Position numbers and translations under genes: made by a program. Source: an uncultured Acidobacteriota bacterium (GTDB lineage: Bacteria > Acidobacteriota > Thermoanaerobaculia > Multivoradales > UBA5704). Taken from it: a stretch of DNA of 64,000 nt. The DNA lies in assembly GCA_963700145.1 (NCBI GenBank), contig OY969474.1, positions 1,408,001-1,472,000 of the forward strand. The letters run 5' to 3'. The number at the start of each line of letters is the position of its first letter. Position 1 is the stretch's first letter. The notes beneath the pieces are model-generated. The model was not told the origin of the DNA. It worked only from the letters and a program-made list of their open reading frames with translations, and did not search any database. Below are positions 2,422 through 63,421 of the stretch, one piece after another.

Positions 2422-2861
2422 GCTGGAGGGGGCGGCGGTGGCACGCAGTCACCGCGGGCGCGGTCGTCGCGCTCGCGCTCGATCTCCTCGAGCTGCCGCA
2501 GCGCGCTCGCCAGCGCCTCGGCGAGCCGCGCCTGGTTGCCCGCCAGCTCGTGCAGGAGCTGGCTCGCCGCCTGGTTGAAGCGGTTCTGCCGCTGCAGGAC
2601 CGGCCGCGCGTACCACTTGAAGAGCAGGTGGAAGGCCGCCTTCTTGAGAAAGACGAGCGCCCCGCCGACGACCGGCCGCGGCGACACCGCGAGCGGCTCC
2701 TCGACGTACTCCAGGGTCTCGAGCTCCATGAGCCGCAGCTTCGTCTCCTCGCCGCCGGAGAGGGTGGCCAGCTCCGCCTGCCGCTGCCGAACACCGGCGC
2801 GGACGCGCTCCAGCATCTCGGCGACCTGGCGGTCGTCCGGAAGCGGCTCGCCGGCGGTCAA
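2418..2861 (-). CDS. Hypothetical coiled-coil protein of a glycan locus
   Basis: 147 aa. SPRPVVGGAL...KWYARPVLQRQNRFN resembles segments in polysaccharide-locus methyltransferases/chain terminators. 4-nt overlaps with both neighbours. Confidence 0.7.
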   Translation of the reverse strand: MTAGEPLPDDRQVAEMLERVRAGVRQRQAELATLSGGEETKLRLMELETLEYVEEPLAVSPRPVVGGALVFLKKAAFHLLFKWYARPVLQRQNRFNQAASQLLHELAGNQARLAEALASALRQLEEIERERDDRARGDCVPPPPPPA

Positions 2862-3235
2862 GTCGCGGGCTCCGTCTCCGGGGCCGGCCCGGGAGCCGCC
2901 TTCCGCCGGCGCGGCCGCGGGCCGCCGGTGCGCGGCCGGAAGCCGAACTGCAGCAGCTCCGGGCTCTTGGTGCCGAAGTGGCCGCGCAGCAGGTCGGCGA
3001 TGCGCTCCTTGACGTCCTGGCCTTGCGCCAAGACCTCGGCGCGGTCCGCGTTGACTTGGCGGAGCAGCGCCGTGACCCGGTTCTGCTCGACCTCCAGGGA
3101 CTTCGCCTGCCCAATGACTTCCGCAAGCTCCGCCCGCAAGGGCGCCAGGTGCGGCACCTCCCCGAGCAGCCCCTCGAGATTGCCGATCAGGGCCGACCAG
3201 TCTTTCAGCTGATCGCCGACCGTGCGGGTGACCAT
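2858..3235 (-). CDS. Small helical protein, repeat-array-associated family (copy A, 125 aa)
   Basis: ATG at 3235 with AGAGGAG RBS 7 nt upstream. MVTRTVGDQL...LRGHFGTKSPELLQFGFRPR. Aligns without gaps to 36924-37307. Confidence 0.85.
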   Translation of the reverse strand: MVTRTVGDQLKDWSALIGNLEGLLGEVPHLAPLRAELAEVIGQAKSLEVEQNRVTALLRQVNADRAEVLAQGQDVKERIADLLRGHFGTKSPELLQFGFRPRTGGPRPRRRKAAPGPAPETEPAT

Positions 3236-3261
3236 GGACTGACTCCTCTTGAGGCGTTCAG

Positions 3262-3500
3262 AACTCCGCCCGGAGCGGCCGGGTGGAGTTACCGGGCCCC
3301 CGGAACTCGACCCGAAGCGCTCGGGCGGAGTTACGAAGTGCCGAAAACTCAACCCGGAGCCTCCGGGCGGAGTTACGAGGCGCTGGTAACTCGACCCGAC
3401 GGCTCCGGGTGGAGTTAGGAGACGCTGATAACTCGACCCGAAGCGTCCGGGTGGAGTTAGGAAGCGCCGATAACTCGACCCGAAGCGTCCGGGCGGAGTT
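3262..3500. repeat. Tandem array: six 29-bp palindromic units with 13-bp spacers (42-bp period)
   Basis: Units AACTCnnCCCG-N7-CGGGYGGAGTT start at 3262, 3304, 3346, 3388, 3430 and 3472. Confidence 0.95.
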
Positions 3501-3788: not shown

Positions 3789-4031
3789 ATGACAAAGCTA
3801 GCTCCGAAGCCGCGGCGCATCGTCATCGAGAAGGCGCCAAGGAACTTCTCGGCCTACTCACCGGACCTGCCTGGGTGTGTAGCCACCGGCGCCACGCGCG
3901 AAGAGACCGAGCGGCAAATGTATGAGGCCATCCGCCTCCACCTGGAAGGGATTGCCGAGGATGGAGAGCCGGTGCCCGAAGCCACGGCGGTGGCCGAATA
4001 CGTCGTCCTCCTGCCTGCTGAGCGTCAATGA
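3789..4031 (+). CDS. hicB: HicB-family antitoxin
   Basis: IVIEK...FSAYSPDLPGCVATGATREE...AIRLHLEG is the typical HicB N-terminal domain. Confidence 0.88.
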   Translation: MTKLAPKPRRIVIEKAPRNFSAYSPDLPGCVATGATREETERQMYEAIRLHLEGIAEDGEPVPEATAVAEYVVLLPAERQ

Positions 4032-4366
4032 AGCTTCCTACCGGCGGAGCAATCGTCGACGACGCCAAGATCCGCGACTATCTGCTTTCTCTCGAGCATC
4101 CGGTTGGCAGATTCAAGGCGGTGTTCTTCGGGATTCTCGGCTACCAACGAGAGGACTGGCAAAGGCTTCGACACGACTTGCTTGCGATCCTCGAAGTAGG
4201 GGACGCAGTCGCCAGGCCATCAAGAAGCTTCGGGCAGAAGTACGAGGTGCGTGGTACGCTTCGCGGGCCAACCGGACGACGTGCTGAAGTCGTCACCGTC
4301 TGGATCGTGCTGGCCGGCGAGAGATTCCCTCGCTTCGTCACCGCGGTTCCGGGTGAGACACCATGA
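4028..4366 (+). CDS. DUF6883-like protein (putative toxin/nuclease)
   Basis: AIVDDAKIRDYLL..EHPVGRFKAVFF...FGQKYEV...TVWI...PRFVTA. ATGA overlap with hicB. Confidence 0.75.
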   Translation: MKLPTGGAIVDDAKIRDYLLSLEHPVGRFKAVFFGILGYQREDWQRLRHDLLAILEVGDAVARPSRSFGQKYEVRGTLRGPTGRRAEVVTVWIVLAGERFPRFVTAVPGETP

Positions 4367-35930: not shown

Positions 35931-36863
35931 TCACTTTTCCACGGGGACCGCCAACCGTTCGAGGACGCGGGCCGCCCTCGGCAACTCGCGGGGCGGCGTT
36001 TTCCACTCTCGACCCACCTGTGCCTGATGTTTCCCGGGACTGCTCCAGTGGACGAAGACCCAGTCCACCGGGTCGAGCCAGCCCTTGTGGGGCGGCCGGG
36101 CGGACTGCCTCAGGCTGGCGACGAGGCCGCCCTCGAAGCGGACCACATGCAGCGGCAGGAGCAGCTTCTCCGGGAACGGCCCGGCCGTCGCGCGCGCCTT
36201 GAGCTCCCGGCGCAGCAAGGGTCGTTCGGCGAGTAACCGGCGCAGCCAGCGGAGAGAGGCGAAGTAGTAGGGGCTGCGGCTGGTGCCGGGGAGCTCCAGC
36301 TTCTCGGCCGCGACGATCTGTCCTTTCTCCCGCCGGTGCGGCAGGCCGAGGACTTCGCGGACGAGCGCGGCGGCGGCTTGGTTGCGTGGGAGCGCGGTCT
36401 TCGTGCGCAGGCCGGGGGCCCAGGGCTCGCCGTCGGGCGAGGCGAGCGCGTTGTAGAGGCGGAGGGCGCGGCCGAGCCAGTCGAGGGCGAGGTTCCTGAG
36501 CTTGGGGCGGGGGTGCTCGAGGGTGGCGCAGAGGATGGCGGTGTGGGCTTCGAGGTGCATGCCGGCGTGGGGGTCCGGGCAGAGGCACTCGGTGCGGTAC
36601 ATGCCCTGCTCGCGCTCCAGCTCGTAGAGCTTGACGACCTGGGCGAAGGCCAGGCGGCGCTCGGCGGGCTCGACCTCGGCCAAGAGCACCCGCCAGAGCC
36701 AGCTGGCGGCGAGCATGGCCTGGTAGTTGGCGGTCTCGGCCCAGGTGCCGTCGTCGAGGCCGAGGATCTTGCGGAGGTAGGGATCCTGGCGGGGGTCGGA
36801 GACGACGCGGCCTGCGAAGCAGGCGGCGAGGCGGGCTTGGAGGCCGACGTGGGCGGGTTTCAT
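35931..36863 (-). CDS. Hypothetical protein
   Basis: 310 aa; ATG start; coding-like codon usage; no family recognised. Confidence 0.7.
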   Translation of the reverse strand: MKPAHVGLQARLAACFAGRVVSDPRQDPYLRKILGLDDGTWAETANYQAMLAASWLWRVLLAEVEPAERRLAFAQVVKLYELEREQGMYRTECLCPDPHAGMHLEAHTAILCATLEHPRPKLRNLALDWLGRALRLYNALASPDGEPWAPGLRTKTALPRNQAAAALVREVLGLPHRREKGQIVAAEKLELPGTSRSPYYFASLRWLRRLLAERPLLRRELKARATAGPFPEKLLLPLHVVRFEGGLVASLRQSARPPHKGWLDPVDWVFVHWSSPGKHQAQVGREWKTPPRELPRAARVLERLAVPVEK

Positions 36864-36888
36864 GGGTGGCTTCGGGGTCAGGAAACGA

Positions 36889-36910
36889 CGGGGGGCGTCA
36901 CCGCCCCCCG
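36889..36910 (-). terminator. Probable intrinsic terminator after small protein copy B
   Basis: 9-bp GC stem cggggggcg / cgccccccg, followed on the minus strand by tcgtttcct; about 13 nt past the stop codon. Confidence 0.55.
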
Positions 36911-36923
36911 CGGTGCGCTCAGC

Positions 36924-37307
36924 CTACTTCGTCGCCGCCGGAGTGGGCTCCGACGCCGGTGCCGGCGGCGGGGTCTCGGGCTTCTTCGTGCGCCGCCCGC
37001 CGCGCGGCCGGAGGCCGAACTCGTGGAGCACCTTGTTCTTGGTGCCAAACTGACCGCGCAGGGCGGCGTCGGCCTGGCTGCGCAGCTCGACGCCGCGGGC
37101 CTCGGCTCGCCGGCGCTTCTCGTTGGTCTCCCGCAGGCGCGCGGTGTAGATCTCCTGCTGGGTCTCGAGGCCCCGGGTCTCCGCGAGCCAGGCTTCGAGG
37201 TCGGTCTGCAGCGGCTCGAGAAGCGGGATCTCGGGCAGGCGCGCCTTGAGGTTGGTGCTCAGGATGTCCATCGCCGCGATGAGGTTGATCAGGTTCCGGT
37301 CAGGCAT
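36924..37307 (-). CDS. Small helical protein, repeat-array-associated family (copy B, 127 aa)
   Basis: AAGGAG RBS; MPDRNLINL...LRGQFGTKNKVLHEFGLRPR; paralog of 2858-3235. Confidence 0.85.
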   Translation of the reverse strand: MPDRNLINLIAAMDILSTNLKARLPEIPLLEPLQTDLEAWLAETRGLETQQEIYTARLRETNEKRRRAEARGVELRSQADAALRGQFGTKNKVLHEFGLRPRGGRRTKKPETPPPAPASEPTPAATK

Positions 37308-37392
37308 GGGGGCTCTCCTTCAATCCAGACAGTGGACGAAAGCGCCAAGCGGAGGATTCCGCCGGCGCGGGTGAGAGGGAGGGGCGGCGGGG

Positions 37393-37655
37393 GAAGCCTC
37401 GCCACGCGTTGGCGAAGCTTCCCTTTTCAAGAGCGAAGCTTCCCCACCGGAAAGCGAAGCTTGGCTGTTCAAAGGGGAAGCTTTCCCGTCCGAGAGCGAA
37501 GCTTCGCTTTTCAAAAGACAAGCTTCGCCATCGGAAAGCGAAGCTTCGCCTTTCAAGAGGGAAGCTTCGCCAACGGAAAGGGAAGCTTCGCTTTTCGAAG
37601 GTGAAGCTTCGCCATCGGAAGGGGAAGCTTCGCTTTTCAGAGGGCAAGCTTCCCC
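37393..37655. repeat. Tandem array: 13 units of 21 bp with palindromic GAAGCTTC core and alternating spacers (42-bp higher-order period)
   Basis: Cores at 37393, 37414, 37435, 37456, 37477, 37498, 37519, 37540, 37561, 37582, 37603, 37624 and 37645. Confidence 0.95.
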
Positions 37656-37708
37656 AGTCGGGAGGGGTCGAGCCGCTTCCGGGTTGTTTTGTTCCCTCAT
37701 GAGCGGGT

Positions 37709-37737
37709 ATTTAACCCGTTCAGTGTGGCGAAGTCAA
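37709..37737 (-). promoter_or_regulatory. Candidate sigma70 promoter facing array 2
   Basis: TTGACT-N17-TTAAAT on the minus strand in an AT-enriched patch; the -10 box is imperfect. Confidence 0.4.
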
Positions 37738-37859
37738 CCCTTCACCATGCGCGAGGGGCGGAAGGACAAGGCGGCGGAGGCCTTCGCCCGCGGCGGCGGA
37801 CTTCCGGCGGGCAGCGAGGCTCGCGCTCGAGATCGGGGGACGAGGGGAAGGCGGGCGAG

Positions 37860-38075
37860 CACTCCCTGCGAGCTGCCCTCGGCGAGGTCCCCGACGGCTA
37901 CGCCGGCGCGCTCCGCCCCGGCCTGCCGGCCGCGTGGCCGGCCTTCCTCGACAAGCTCCTGGCGAAGCAGCCGGCGCAGCGCTACGGCTCGGCCGAAGAG
38001 GTGCTGGCAGCGCTCGCGGCGCTGCCGGAGGCGGAGGACGAGACGGTCGTGCTCAAGAGGCAAGCGTCAGGGACG
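37860..38075 (+). pseudogene. Remnant of a Ser/Thr protein kinase C-lobe
   Basis: ALRPGLPAAWPAFLDKLLAKQPAQRYGSAEEVLAAL resembles kinase subdomains X-XI; no N-terminal kinase motifs. Bounds are approximate. Confidence 0.55.
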
Positions 38076-38648
38076 CTTGATCAGGCTTCCCGTGAGCCGG
38101 TTGACCGAGGCGTCCGGGAAGACGCCGCCGTCGGGAGCGAGCTGCCCCTTCGCCACGATCGCCGCGCGCAGCGTGAACTTGGAGACGGGACGCGCGCCTA
38201 TGCCGACGAGCCAGCCCTCGATGTGGTCCTTTTCGTCGCACCGTTCGCCGAGCGCCTGGTGGGAGCCGCTGCGGCTGATGAGCTCGAGGATGCCCCGGAA
38301 GTAGAGAACGTCAGGCTGCGGCGGGTTCTTCTTGACGATGCGGAACTGGCCCATGAAATGGGCGAAGCCGTCGGCGCGGGCGATGGTGACGCCTTTCGCG
38401 GTGAGCTGGGTGGACGGCCAGATCGCGAGGCTCTCGTCGCACTGGAGAGCCGCCGTGATCCGCCAGGTGAAGGTGGTGACGAAGCGGACCGTCCTTCCGG
38501 CCCCGCCTCCGCCTTCGCACGTGTACGACGACGGCTTCGCGCCGTCGAAGACGCCGTCGAAGGTGCGGTCGACCCTGAAGAGACAGTAGCTCACGTTCGC
38601 CGCAAGGCCGGGGATCGTCACGTCCGGGAACGAGCTCAGAGGGGGCAT
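38067..38648 (-). CDS. Hypothetical beta-rich protein
   Basis: 193 aa; GGAGGTG RBS upstream of the ATG. Confidence 0.7.
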   Translation of the reverse strand: MPPLSSFPDVTIPGLAANVSYCLFRVDRTFDGVFDGAKPSSYTCEGGGGAGRTVRFVTTFTWRITAALQCDESLAIWPSTQLTAKGVTIARADGFAHFMGQFRIVKKNPPQPDVLYFRGILELISRSGSHQALGERCDEKDHIEGWLVGIGARPVSKFTLRAAIVAKGQLAPDGGVFPDASVNRLTGSLIKRP

Positions 38649-60100: not shown

Positions 60101-63100
60101 ATGCTCCGCCGCATGTTTTCGATCCGCCGTACCCTGACGTCCTGCTGTCTGCTCGCCTTCTTCGCCGCCCTTCCTCTGGCGGCGCAGCCCCTTCCCTGCC
60201 GGCCGTGCGCCGGCCTGCGCGTCGAGACGGCGTTCGCCGGCGAGGCGCTGGAGGCGTTGGCCGGGGCGCTCCCGGCCGGCGCCGACGCGACCGTCGTCCT
60301 CGCCTGGGAGGCGCCGCTCGACGGCTCCGCCGACTTGGCGCCCCTCGAGCGCGCGGCGGCCCTGGCGCCCCCTCCGGCTCCCGTCCCGGCGGCCGCCCCG
60401 CCAGCGCCCGCCGCCCCGGCGCCGCGGCTCATCCCCTGGCTCACACTCCCCTTCCGCACCCCGTCGCCCCTGGCGCAGCAGGCGGTGCGGCTGCAAGGCG
60501 AGCTGGACGCGGTGTCGCGCCTGGCCGCCGCGGCGCCGCCCGGCACCTTCTTCCAGATCGCCTGGCGGCCGGAAGGGCTCGAGGCGGCGCCGCTCGACTT
60601 CGCCGAGTACGCCTTCCTGCTCAAGCGGGCGGCGGTGGCGGTGACCGGTGCGCGACCGGACGGCCGGGTGGTCACCCAGCCTCTGCGCGCCGGCGCCGAG
60701 GCGGTCGAAGCGCTGTACGCGCAAGAGGTTGCGGCCTACCTCGAGGCGGTCGCGGTGCTTCCGGGCAGGCCCGAAGCGGTCGCGGCCACCGCCGAAGCGG
60801 TCGAGCGGCTGGACCCCGGGCGGCTGGTGGTTCTGGACGCGCCGCCGCTGCCGGACGATCCGCAGACTCTCCCGGCCGAAGCGGCCCGCTGGGCCGTCCG
60901 CGGGGTGTCGCTGGTCCTGTTTCGGGTAGAAAGGGAACAATCGGAGCCCGCGGAAGGCTCCGAAGGGGCTGCGGAAGCTTCCCCGGCGCCTCCGGAAGCT
61001 TCCGCTCCTGCTCCGGAAGCTTCCGTACCTCCTGCGGAAGCTTCCGCTTCGCCTCCGGAAGCTTCCGTACCGCCTCGGGAAGCTTCCGCTTCACCTCCGG
61101 AAGCTTCCGTACCTCCCCGGGAAGCTTCCGCTCCGCCTCCGGAAGCTTCCGCTCCCCCCCGGGAAGCTTCCCTACCCGCTCCGGAAGCTTCCGCACCGTC
61201 TCCGAAAGCCTCCGCGGCGCCCGGGGAGCCTCTCTCCCTACCTGAATCCTTCTTCCAGGCCCTCACCCCCCTCTCCGTCCTGGCCCGGGAGTTCGCCGGA
61301 GATCTTTCTTACGATCCCACTTCGTCTCCGCAAGGCTCCGGCGAGGCCTGGGCCTTCGTGCGCGGGGAGGACCTCGCCCTCCGGGTCATCGCCGTCACCC
61401 CCGCCGCGCCGCAGGTCGACCTCCGCTTCCCCGACCCGCTGCTCGGCAGCCCGGTGATCGTGGACGCCCCGACCGGCCGCACCGTCGAGGCGGCGGGCAA
61501 CCGGGTGGGGGGCGCCTACGTCGTCCGCCTCTACCAGCCCCGCCCGGTGACCCTCCTCCGGCTCGAGCGGGTGGAGCAGGTCGAGCTCGAGGCGGTCAAG
61601 GAGAGGGTCACCGTCGCCGGCGAGCGGGAGGTCCCCGTCGAGGAGATCCTCCGCCGCCTCCAGGCCTTCGAGGACGCCCAGGCGCGCCGCCTCCTCAACT
61701 ACCGCGCCGTCAACACCACCCACCTCCGCTTCCAGGTCGGGGCCAGCTCGCAGAGCTTCGAGGCGACGCTCCAGGGGCCGTTCTTCTGGACCCCGGCGAG
61801 CGGCGCCGACTGGGTCTGGCAGGACCTCTTCGTCAACGGCGTCCGCTGGCGCGCCAAGACGATCCCCGAGATCCCGCTGGTGCAGCCGGAGAAGGCGGCG
61901 GCCATGCCGCTCGAGATCCACTTCACCCGCCAGTACCGCTACCGCCTGCGCGGCAGCGAAAAGATCGACGGCCGCGACGGCTGGGTGGTGGACTTCGCCC
62001 CGACCGCCCTCGAGACCGGGGAGGGGGGCAAGCTCTACCAGGGCACTGTCTGGGTGGACAAGCAGCTCTCCTCGCGCCTGCGCACCCGCGCCGTGCAGGT
62101 GGGGCTCGAAGGGGAGGTCATCTCGAACGAGGAGACCCTCCACTACACGCCGATCGACGCCGAGGGGCGGGCCGCGCCCTGGGGGGCAGCGGGGAGCTTC
62201 GTCCTGCCGCTGCGCATCCTGGCGCAGCAGATCCTCTCGGTCGTCAACGCGGCGACGGTCGTCGAGCGCGAGACCAACCTGACCGAGGTCAAGGTCAACG
62301 ACCCCGGGTTCGAGCAGGCGCGGCAGGCGGCCGCGGAGTCGGACCTGACGATGGTGCGCGACACGCCGCAGGGGCTGCGCTACCTGGTCAAGGACGAGGC
62401 GACCGGCGAGCGGGTGGTCAAGGAGGGCTTCGACAGCAACAAGCTGTTCCTCCTGGGCGGCCTCTTCTACGACGACGCCCTCGACTTCCCGCTGCCTCTG
62501 GCCGGCATCAACTACTTCTCCTTCGACTTCCGCGGCACGGGCCAGCAGGTCAACGCCTTCTTCGGCGGCGCTCTCCTGACCGTGGACGTCGCCGAGCCGC
62601 GCCTTTTCGGCAGCCGCTTCGACGCCGGCGCCGACTTCTTCGCCCTGGCGGTGCCGCTCGCCGACACCGTCTGGCGCGACGACGACGAGGTGCACGAGGA
62701 GGAGGTCGAGACCCGCTCGGGCAACGTCGGCTTCAAGCTCGGCCGGCCGCTCGGGAACTTCGTCAAGGTCTCGTCGGAGTACACGCTCGCCCACCACGAC
62801 TACGGCACGACCGACAACACCATCGCCGGCTTCGTCCCCCCCGGCAACCACCTGACGCACTCGCTGCAGCTCAACGGCCGCTTCGCCCGCGCGGGCTGGC
62901 GCGTCGGGTTGGAGGGGAGCCTGCACCGCCGCTCGGAGTGGGAGCCCTGGGGGCTGCCGGGGAACCCCGACTACTTCGCCGAGGCGCAGGACTACTCGCT
63001 CTGGGGGGCGACGCTGTCGAAGAACTGGTACCTGCCCTACTTCCAGAAGATCGGCGCCGAGGTGAACTACCTGGGCGGCTCCGACCTCGACCGCTTCTCG

Positions 63101-63421
63101 AAGTACGAGTTCGGCTTCTTCGGCGCCAGCCGCGTCCACGGCTACCAGAGCGACCGCGTGCGGGCGACCGAGGTCACCGCCGGGCACCTCTCCTACGGCT
63201 TCGAGATCGGCGAGGCCTTCCGCCTGGAAGCGGTGGCCGACGCGGCGCTCGCCACCGACGAGGACGCCGGCCTCGACCAGGAGCTGCTCGCCGGCATCGG
63301 CGTCAACGGCACCTTCCTCGGCCCCTGGCAGACGGTCGTCAACCTCGACCTGGGCGTCCCGGTGCAGGGGCCGGACGACGGCTTCGTCCTCTACGTCGTG
63401 TTCCTCAAGCTCTTCCGATGA
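60101..63421 (+). CDS. Large exported protein with a probable C-terminal outer-membrane barrel and an internal heptapeptide repeat
   Basis: Signal peptide; alternating beta-strand C-terminus ending FLKLFR; (PEASxPP)n insert. Confidence 0.8.
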   Translation: MLRRMFSIRRTLTSCCLLAFFAALPLAAQPLPCRPCAGLRVETAFAGEALEALAGALPAGADATVVLAWEAPLDGSADLAPLERAAALAPPPAPVPAAAPPAPAAPAPRLIPWLTLPFRTPSPLAQQAVRLQGELDAVSRLAAAAPPGTFFQIAWRPEGLEAAPLDFAEYAFLLKRAAVAVTGARPDGRVVTQPLRAGAEAVEALYAQEVAAYLEAVAVLPGRPEAVAATAEAVERLDPGRLVVLDAPPLPDDPQTLPAEAARWAVRGVSLVLFRVEREQSEPAEGSEGAAEASPAPPEASAPAPEASVPPAEASASPPEASVPPREASASPPEASVPPREASAPPPEASAPPREASLPAPEASAPSPKASAAPGEPLSLPESFFQALTPLSVLAREFAGDLSYDPTSSPQGSGEAWAFVRGEDLALRVIAVTPAAPQVDLRFPDPLLGSPVIVDAPTGRTVEAAGNRVGGAYVVRLYQPRPVTLLRLERVEQVELEAVKERVTVAGEREVPVEEILRRLQAFEDAQARRLLNYRAVNTTHLRFQVGASSQSFEATLQGPFFWTPASGADWVWQDLFVNGVRWRAKTIPEIPLVQPEKAAAMPLEIHFTRQYRYRLRGSEKIDGRDGWVVDFAPTALETGEGGKLYQGTVWVDKQLSSRLRTRAVQVGLEGEVISNEETLHYTPIDAEGRAAPWGAAGSFVLPLRILAQQILSVVNAATVVERETNLTEVKVNDPGFEQARQAAAESDLTMVRDTPQGLRYLVKDEATGERVVKEGFDSNKLFLLGGLFYDDALDFPLPLAGINYFSFDFRGTGQQVNAFFGGALLTVDVAEPRLFGSRFDAGADFFALAVPLADTVWRDDDEVHEEEVETRSGNVGFKLGRPLGNFVKVSSEYTLAHHDYGTTDNTIAGFVPPGNHLTHSLQLNGRFARAGWRVGLEGSLHRRSEWEPWGLPGNPDYFAEAQDYSLWGATLSKNWYLPYFQKIGAEVNYLGGSDLDRFSKYEFGFFGASRVHGYQSDRVRATEVTAGHLSYGFEIGEAFRLEAVADAALATDEDAGLDQELLAGIGVNGTFLGPWQTVVNLDLGVPVQGPDDGFVLYVVFLKLFR
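60952..61213. repeat. Intragenic tandem array of 21-bp units with GGAAGCTTCC palindrome
   Basis: 11 perfect cores every 21 bp from 60973 to 61183, plus degenerate cores at 60952 and 61204. Confidence 0.95.

Follow-up and report, generated by a model that had tools for sequence, protein, structure and literature searches.

What does an array of strictly phased palindromes do in front of a small protein gene, and do the two belong together? These questions are raised by a locus, here called copy B, which lies in a 64,000-nucleotide window (the whole stretch of DNA that was analysed) from an uncultured acidobacterium, and in which 13 dyad cores spaced 21 bp apart precede the gene of a 127-residue protein. 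F0 is used here as the name for this protein and its relatives. The genome that carries the window (G000) is a single 5.46-Mb contig with 71.5% G+C, is 95% complete, and belongs to a Thermoanaerobaculia-type soil acidobacterium. Copy B belongs, as a complete member, to a two-part system of protein and array that is apparently undescribed and restricted to one lineage: gene and array are strictly linked, the arrays fall into types, arrays and proteins are present or absent jointly, and the cores are conserved above the spacers. No description of such arrays was found in a literature search that had most subscription journals outside its coverage.

Each F0 gene in the genome is preceded by an array

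Searches with tblastn and an iterated profile identified 16 F0 paralogs in G000, and all 16 have an array upstream of the ATG, at a distance of 27–117 nt and with a period of 20 or 21 bp (or 40, 42 or 63 bp). Fourteen of these arrays are strong and two, at genome positions 3433444 and 3106709, are short; the cores, which are mostly dyad-symmetric, differ from the array of one paralog to that of another. The layout from core to ATG, in copy B 13 cores at 21 bp placed 105 nt before the ATG, is shared by all 16 paralogs, each of which also has a ribosome-binding site of the AGGAG/GGAGG type. Among the gene families that adjoin arrays, F0 is the sole sizeable one (a cluster of 14, the next largest having 3 members).

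Arrays of this kind are dispersed over the chromosome, mostly between genes and in every kind of intergenic context. Tandem Repeats Finder (TRF) returned 442 rows for G000, among them 117 with a period of 21 bp, 82 with 42, 45 with 63, 19 with 20, 16 with 84 and 13 with 40, and no unrelated period exceeds 17 rows. That a period of 20/21 bp is common to all array types fits helical phasing. Merging of the rows gave 124 arrays of 90–540 bp, a few of them plainly GC-rich coding repeats, and the density amounts to about one phased array of 200–300 bp per 44 kb. By common 10-mers, 72 of the 124 can be assigned to gene-linked types, 15 out of 16 of which are represented (the exception is the type of the short p3433 array, which TRF does not list); the type of copy B comprises six arrays, i.e., five elsewhere on the chromosome.

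Array types follow the proteins across genomes

Periodic sequence precedes F0 genes in other genomes as well. At one F0 locus in each of 28 other genomes, autocorrelation detected an upstream periodicity of 20–22 bp, or its double, in 22 cases (z at least 2.9), TRF found arrays with a family period at 17 loci, and six loci show none. For the comparison of array types, 64 modules from five genomes of the genus were collected, of which 44 were usable and 20, with fewer than three repeated 9-mers, were dropped. An array type in common was found for 21 of the 22 protein pairs that are at least 85% identical, for 2 of 20 pairs at 75–85% identity, and for none of 881 pairs below 75%.

A change of type is seen in a clade of proteins 76–78% identical to that of copy B, whose arrays have CAAGCTTG cores, i.e., a symmetric change of both outer positions of the GAAGCTTC dyad of copy B. 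Phased CAAGCTTG pairs occur only in the sister genome G004, the sole genome with that clade, where they accompany its two genes and occupy one further site; there are none in the four other genomes. Genome G002 has neither a close relative of the copy B protein nor arrays of the copy B type, and its nearest relative bears a different 21-bp array.

The distribution of the two parts coincides at a larger scale. In a survey of 61 genomes of relatives, the same taxonomic family is represented by 36, and 32 of these have F0, with 4–48 hits each; the four family members without it all belong to genus g10, and none of 24 genomes from eleven other families of the order has F0. Arrays were counted in 20 evenly spaced 20-kb pieces (400 kb) per genome with identical TRF settings, which gave 13 in G000, 9 in G010 (another genus, 48 F0 hits) and 6 in G006 (a third genus, 7 hits), as against none in the F0-less genomes G041 (genus g10, same family) and G025 (another family).

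Anatomy of copy B and borders of the unit

Copy B was first described in a first-pass annotation made by a model from the letters of the window and a list of its open reading frames (ORFs), and what that annotation claimed about its anatomy was found as described. Read on the minus strand, a predicted promoter with the hexamers TTGACT (37737–37732) and TTAAAT (37714–37709), 17 nt apart and with a small inverted repeat over the -10 box, is separated from the array by ~55 nt of unique sequence. The array is followed by a C-rich stretch, a GC-rich leader hairpin (37368–37342) that includes the GCGGA..TCCGC pairing noted earlier, an AAGGAG ribosome-binding site, the ORF of 127 codons and a G6CG/CGC6 hairpin (36909–36890) with GTCGTTTCC behind it. 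The 127-residue protein is indeed a paralog of the protein of copy A, a second F0 locus in the window (35% identity over 124 residues, E 6e-18).

The promoter, with the pattern GGGTTGAC-N17/18-TA(A/G)A.T followed by ACCCG, is kept in three of six module copies and is found again, -430 to -467 relative to the ATG, in two distant clades of paralogs, p215 and p2172; a motif of the TTGAC/TA...T type lies within 480 nt in 11 of the 64 modules, two of them nearer to the ATG (-335 and -407). A consensus promoter scan made no call at copy B because position 2 of its -10 box is T and not A. In 5 of the 16 paralogs the gap between array and ATG is just 27–41 nt, so that the array is transcribed there or the promoter sits inside it. 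A terminator scan called neither the leader hairpin nor the gene terminator, the latter because its T-run is short, and two terminator-like matches fall inside the array.

The leader hairpin is kept in all eight aligned copies, which represent two clades, with 3–5 T after it. All nine one-sided changes in it are compatible with G-U pairing on the sense strand, no double compensatory change is seen, and the two outermost cells are broken. We see in this some, though modest, support for an element that acts as RNA, perhaps as an attenuator. As a feature of the whole family the hairpin was rejected, with a mean z of just -1.6 over positions -100 to -18 and z below -2 in 24 of 64 modules, values that in part stem from arrays overlapping the segment. 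None of the 20 sequencing runs listed as matching window positions 36700–38000 is an RNA run; all are soil or plant metagenome DNA with word shares of at most 0.14.

Homology to copy B, at 82–84% identity, extends from window position 37656 to ~36883, i.e., from the first array unit through the terminator, and homologous modules lie at three places in G004 and at two in the sister genome G003. Their flanks are unrelated to those of copy B and to one another, and the orthologs of the genes that flank copy B sit elsewhere in G004. In four of the six module copies the homology stops just past the terminator hairpin; the copies G004:C10b and G003:C160 have a different hairpin after the stop codon. 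Judged by these alignments, array and gene recur as one unit of ~0.8 kb at non-syntenic sites in sister species, and the homology from array to terminator amid unrelated flanks points to a self-contained transcription unit, as had been proposed.

The dyads are better conserved than the spacers

The 13 cores keep a strict 21-bp phase, eight of them exact and five with one mismatch. The window contains 21 exact GAAGCTTC octamers where 1.02 are expected, a count that none of 100 shuffles attained, and eight of the 21 lie in the copy B array. TRF assigns to copy B a period of 42 bp (5.9 copies, 81% matches, score 298) far above the period of 21 bp (61% matches), which confirms that two spacer classes, TTTTGAAAAG-like and TTTCCGATGG-like, alternate with a 42-bp super-period, in agreement with the first-pass description. 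A 12-bp dyad, G.GAAGCTTC.C, forms the conserved unit; the information profile computed over 75 units of six related arrays shows symmetry about its centre. By a crude measure, blind to gapped dyads, 35 of 98 unit consensuses contain a perfect palindrome of at least 8 bp. All reading frames are open across the copy B array; a coding function was rejected as a general reading because array types with a 20-bp period exist.

About 108 arrays of the same build lie in G000 without an F0 gene. One such orphan, at genome positions 1196014–1196238, is 92% identical to the copy B array over 245 bp, unit for unit, and the homology is confined to the array, which an unrelated gene adjoins. The orphan has an ortholog in G004 (C43) that lies before the same gene and differs in unit number; between the two, 83 of 96 positions are identical in the cores, 95 of 143 in the spacers and 81 of 85 at the start of the coding sequence. 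Thirty-seven orphans could be oriented by their spacers: against crude gene calls, 6 are co-oriented and 11 anti-oriented with both neighbours in co-directional gaps, 12 lie in convergent gaps and 8 in divergent ones. A strict promoter motif, whose pattern misses the TTAAAT variant of copy B, points into none of the ~108 orphans.

A stand-alone small-RNA gene was rejected as a description of the arrays, as the strict promoter motif points into two arrays only, both gene-linked. Pointing away from the arrays, the strict sigma-70-like motif occurs in 5 of 248 flank windows against ~0.65 expected (all 124 arrays, at the genome-wide density), so that some arrays abut promoters of neighbour genes.

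These data bear on an alternative at the level of RNA, which takes up the first-pass proposal that the array is a structured leader of the F0 gene. The array would be a transcribed leader of ~400 nt made of hairpins, to which F0 would bind with its Arg-rich tail, controlling read-through of the terminator-like hairpin, or translation or stability; palindromes would pair with their neighbours, and the other arrays would act wherever they are transcribed. The promoter conserved upstream of the array in three paralog clades, the short array-to-ATG gap in 5 of 16 paralogs, and the leader hairpin with its G-U-compatible changes and T-run all favour such a role, as does the 42-nt unit of copy B, which, like that of copy A, consists of a hairpin of 29 nt (near-perfect in copy B) and a linker of 13 nt. 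Arginine-rich tails are classic RNA-hairpin binders, and a palindromic stem is identical in either transcript, which makes the absent orientation bias compatible with an RNA target. The predicted fold of the array is strong (-205.9 kcal/mol, z -10.3) and fits the leader model, although repeated palindromes yield such a fold by construction.

The core variants speak against the leader role. Among 83 cores of six copy-B-type modules, the substitutions read on the sense strand comprise 10 transitions that G-U pairing tolerates, 16 disruptive transitions and 18 transversions, events that are not independent; there is no G-U bias. Many array types, moreover, are palindromes of 10–16 bp at a 21-nt period, which cannot self-fold, the constant 20/21 period has no rationale for RNA hairpins, and no Rfam family is matched (3 sub-threshold matches to miRNA models only). 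With ~108 arrays that have no F0 gene, occur in either orientation without a promoter and in at least one case lie in frame inside an ORF, the claim that the array serves as a structured RNA leader for F0 is not supported. We consider an RNA-level mechanism somewhat unlikely. Together, the orphans, their orientation and the core variants speak for the dyad itself as the object under conservation and against a sense-strand RNA structure for the adjacent gene.

The same arrays could also be selfish or neutral, minisatellite-like repeats that are homogenised by recombination and have no sequence-specific partner, F0 being an unrelated gene that carries one upstream. The orphan that matches copy B up to the array borders, the occurrence of arrays in all intergenic contexts and once within an ORF, the variable unit number of orthologous arrays, and the 52 of 124 arrays without a gene-linked type are what such repeats would lead one to expect. 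Plain homogenisation would not, however, yield orthologous arrays with 86% identity in the cores and 66% in the spacers; one period for all types, linkage to one gene family in 16 of 16 cases, the lack of arrays in the two sampled F0-less genomes and the lack of a RAYT-type transposase in G000 are likewise at variance with it. We regard this explanation as unlikely. It would offer no account of why unrelated sequences have a 20/21-bp period in common, why cores are conserved above spacers, or why arrays and protein are jointly absent from the sister genus.

F0 is a predicted coiled-coil protein with a basic tail

AlphaFold2 models of the 16 paralogs (mean pLDDT 86.6) predict a helix at residues 6–22, a 60-residue helix at 28–87 and a short helix at 92–97, followed by a tail that is modelled as disordered and is rich in Arg, Lys and Pro. 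The most conserved stretch, L.G.(Y/F)G.(K/R)...L.E(F/Y)G..P, stands directly before the basic tail. The predicted long helix and the basic tail would make F0 a plausible dimeric nucleic-acid binder.

Searches returned no known family beyond generic coiled coils. Neither Pfam nor PHROGs has a family for F0, the 16 paralogs yielding sub-threshold coiled-coil matches only in the former; NCBIfam and PADLOC gave sub-threshold chance matches, and a profile search of the PDB gave coiled coils only. With the predicted model as query, Foldseek (best E-value 4.2) and VIA-align (best Z 6.9) returned generic helical structures. Relatives in the ESM Atlas are confined to unnamed Acidobacteriota clusters, and those with a name are hypothetical proteins of metagenome-assembled genomes of Thermoanaerobaculia. 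By tblastn, F0 has no match in 72,556 plasmid records and no relative in a phage collection. The family as seen in metagenomes comprises 1312 representative clusters at E ≤ 0.001 (578 at 1e-10), nearly all of them stand-alone proteins of 105–165 residues; none of six longer relatives, searched for fused domains, has a Pfam family.

A tentative model of array recognition

We infer that F0 is the binder of the arrays, that its target is DNA rather than RNA, and what the effect of binding would be. In the model that we put forward tentatively, as the likeliest of those considered but at somewhat less than even odds, F0 dimers would read dyads of their own type on duplex DNA, coat the array, regulate their own synthesis and occupy dispersed sites of the same type. 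On double-stranded DNA, the putative dimers would bind to the dyads of the array type that belongs to them and would coat the 13-site lattice co-operatively along one helix face, the sites being two helical turns apart. Such a coat would block transcription from the promoter upstream of the array and thereby lead to autoregulation, and the attenuator-like hairpin would act as a second check on F0 expression. F0 might also occupy the five other copy-B-type arrays on the chromosome.

Several observations weigh against this model of DNA recognition. Fifty-two of the 124 arrays match no gene-linked type; some of these are spurious TRF rows, and the remainder need another binder or none. In sequence and fold searches with F0, no known DNA-binding fold or family (H-NS, Lsr2, ribbon-helix-helix, helix-turn-helix (HTH) or bZIP) was recognised, the matches being sub-threshold ones or generic coiled coils and helices. 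F0 proteins with 75–85% identity mostly bear different arrays although they are nearly alike in their best-conserved C-terminal motif, so that no specificity determinant is visible. Since gene and array are physically linked, their co-divergence is expected anyway, and the joint occurrence of arrays and F0 compares three genomes with two by one sample each, with one genome of genus g10. The conserved promoter upstream of the array and the G-U-compatible leader hairpin, finally, imply that the region is probably transcribed, and RNA could then be the target.

The dyads could alternatively be operators of another dimeric regulator, such as the product of a divergent HTH_3 gene, with F0 merely as regulated cargo. 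Dimeric HTH proteins typically read palindromes, and 6 of the 16 paralogs have a divergent HTH_3 gene upstream; copy B and nine other paralogs, however, have no such neighbour. HTH_3 is also a poor candidate because nearly identical copies adjoin arrays of different types at two loci. We regard this possibility as very unlikely.

A wider, speculative view that we think improbable takes the F0 family as array readers with private dyad codes, whose coiled coils bridge arrays of the same type in a diversifying addressing system for dispersed loci. Such readers would label more than 100 chromosomal sites and would co-regulate, insulate or spatially group dispersed loci, and new specificities would arise by symmetric core switches, for example from GAAGCTTC to CAAGCTTG.

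If F0 does read its own arrays, it would represent an undescribed class of bacterial DNA-binding (or RNA-binding) proteins and would offer a natural series of protein–site pairs from which a recognition code could be learned and orthogonal parts built. A conspicuous feature in the genomes of widespread, barely studied soil Acidobacteriota would then have an explanation as well.

Comparison with known repeat systems

The F plasmid site sopC with SopB, and the R1 site parC with ParR, are repeat arrays of a centromere-like or operator kind that lie next to the gene of the protein that binds them. As in these systems, units with dyad cores (~11–43 bp) are arranged here in tandem and in helical phase, and adjoin a small gene between or over its promoter; our working model borrows from them, by analogy, both autoregulation and co-operative coating. 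Unlike sopC and parC, copy B has no partition NTPase gene (ParA, ParM or TubZ) or Rep gene nearby, as judged by Pfam searches of the flanking ORFs, and the system is chromosomal: one replicon carries ~124 arrays, which represent at least 16 types. F0 also differs in having no ribbon-helix-helix, ParB or other known fold and no plasmid or phage relatives.

Iterons and titration arrays, such as those of R6K, P1 incA and oriCII of Vibrio, are mostly non-palindromic, are bound by Rep initiators and number few per replicon. The arrays described here resemble iterons (compare PMC4551981) in being direct repeats of 19–22 bp in phase that may titrate their binder. Copy B differs in being palindromic and in having no origin context.

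Repetitive extragenic palindromic (REP) sequences and bacterial interspersed mosaic elements (BIMEs) are, in the accessible parts of PMC3733652 and PMC12306157, dispersed short intergenic palindromes with a dedicated protein family, the REP-associated tyrosine transposases (RAYTs). On that description, the present arrays, which are dispersed in many copies and are apparently palindromic in part, would resemble them, also with respect to the occasional clustering with alternating linkers and the one associated protein family; the accessible part of the survey PMC12306157 mentions Acidobacteriota in a table only. Unlike REP/BIME, the present arrays have a strict 20/21-bp period and come in many types, each of which is linked to one paralog of a coiled-coil protein that is not an enzyme. 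A search of G000 for Y1/RAYT transposases (PF01797) gave no match, and a control search was positive in 6 of 14 known genomes.

Bacterial minisatellites, such as the mycobacterial interspersed repetitive units with a variable number of tandem repeats (MIRU-VNTR), are intergenic tandem repeats whose unit number varies between relatives. The variable unit number of orthologous arrays is shared with them; a uniform unit length across unrelated sequences, dyad-symmetric cores conserved above the spacers, and a linked gene family are not. TRAP on the trp leader and lambda N on boxB are attenuation systems in which a protein binds repeats, and an RNA-level role of F0 would by analogy resemble them, with a protein bound to repeated leader elements upstream of a terminator-like hairpin. 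Unlike those systems, there is no homology to either, and repeats are present also at ~108 promoter-less sites in both orientations.

Two further candidates were rejected. The array is not a CRISPR (clustered regularly interspaced short palindromic repeats) array because its spacers are short (13 nt) and recur in two classes, and it is not a sponge of the CsrB/RsmZ type because G000 has no CsrA (PF02599).

Neighbouring genes and other features

Table 1. Features of copy B, of the other arrays in the window, and of CAAGCTTG-core arrays in G004. Positions refer to the window unless a contig is given; a dot denotes no assigned strand. GC3, G+C content at third codon positions.
Feature	Position	Strand	Basis or status
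Promoter-like TTGACT-N17-TTAAAT, CGGGT/ACCCG around the -10 box	37709..37737	-	Sequence reading; predicted
Array of 13 dyad cores, G.GAAGCTTC.C, 21-bp spacing	37393..37652	.	Sequence reading, TRF, information profile
GC-rich leader hairpin and TTT, between array and ribosome-binding site	37339..37368	-	Conservation; attenuator/terminator-like
AAGGAG ribosome-binding site, ATG 7 nt later	37315..37320	-	Sequence reading
F0 gene, 127 aa	36924..37307	-	ORF, codon bias, GC3 0.94
GC hairpin GGGGGGCG-GTGA-CGCCCCCC with short T-containing tail; likely terminator, end of conserved unit	36881..36909	-	Sequence reading, homology end
310-aa gene immediately downstream of F0, no known family	35931..36863	-	ORF, Pfam search
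Copy A: 125-aa paralog (2858-3235) and array of 42-bp units (3262-3500) with AACTC..GAGTT hairpin-like dyads	2858..3500	-	TRF, ORF, homology
Third array in the window: 11.6 units of 21 bp, cores CGGAAGCTTCCG; part of a 1106-aa ORF and in frame with it	60972..61215	+	TRF, coding signature
CAAGCTTG-core array	G004:C6:137362-137727
CAAGCTTG-core array	G004:C40:74933-75214
CAAGCTTG-core array	G004:C68:7317-7492

The ORFs that flank copy B (35931–36863, 37737–38063 and 38070–38648) match no Pfam family. A relative of the 310-residue protein is encoded downstream of one other paralog in this genome and of one in G004. It is also the one component, as a gene of 310/315 codons, that copy B has in common with a neighbourhood that recurs around other paralogs. 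That neighbourhood consists of the genes of a 430-residue TPR protein, a divergent HTH_3 protein, and proteins of 274 and 71 residues, then the array and F0, and then genes for 137, 315, 247 and 204 residues; it is seen at genome positions 3103000–3112000 and around the paralogs at 3387763, 3889926, 2032990 and 3204348. HTH_3 alone among its proteins exceeds the curated Pfam cut-off, the TPR_12 match being below it.

The units of copy A, each a 29-nt hairpin-like dyad with a 13-nt linker, are quite unlike those of copy B in sequence, and the array ends 27 nt before the ATG. Next downstream are an ORF for a 147-residue coiled-coil protein and one that is glycosyltransferase-like, stops overlapping with starts. 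A patch of lower G+C content (3789–4366) adjoins copy A and contains two small overlapping ORFs of 80 and 112 codons, which we take to be a putative toxin–antitoxin pair from their likeness to such pairs.

The third array lies within an ORF on the plus strand (60101–63421) whose product has no Pfam family. The array encodes (PEASxPP)n between two coding parts, both flanks being coding in the same frame, and GC3 is 0.44 inside it as against 0.80–0.99 in the flanks. It looks like an array that was captured as a protein linker.

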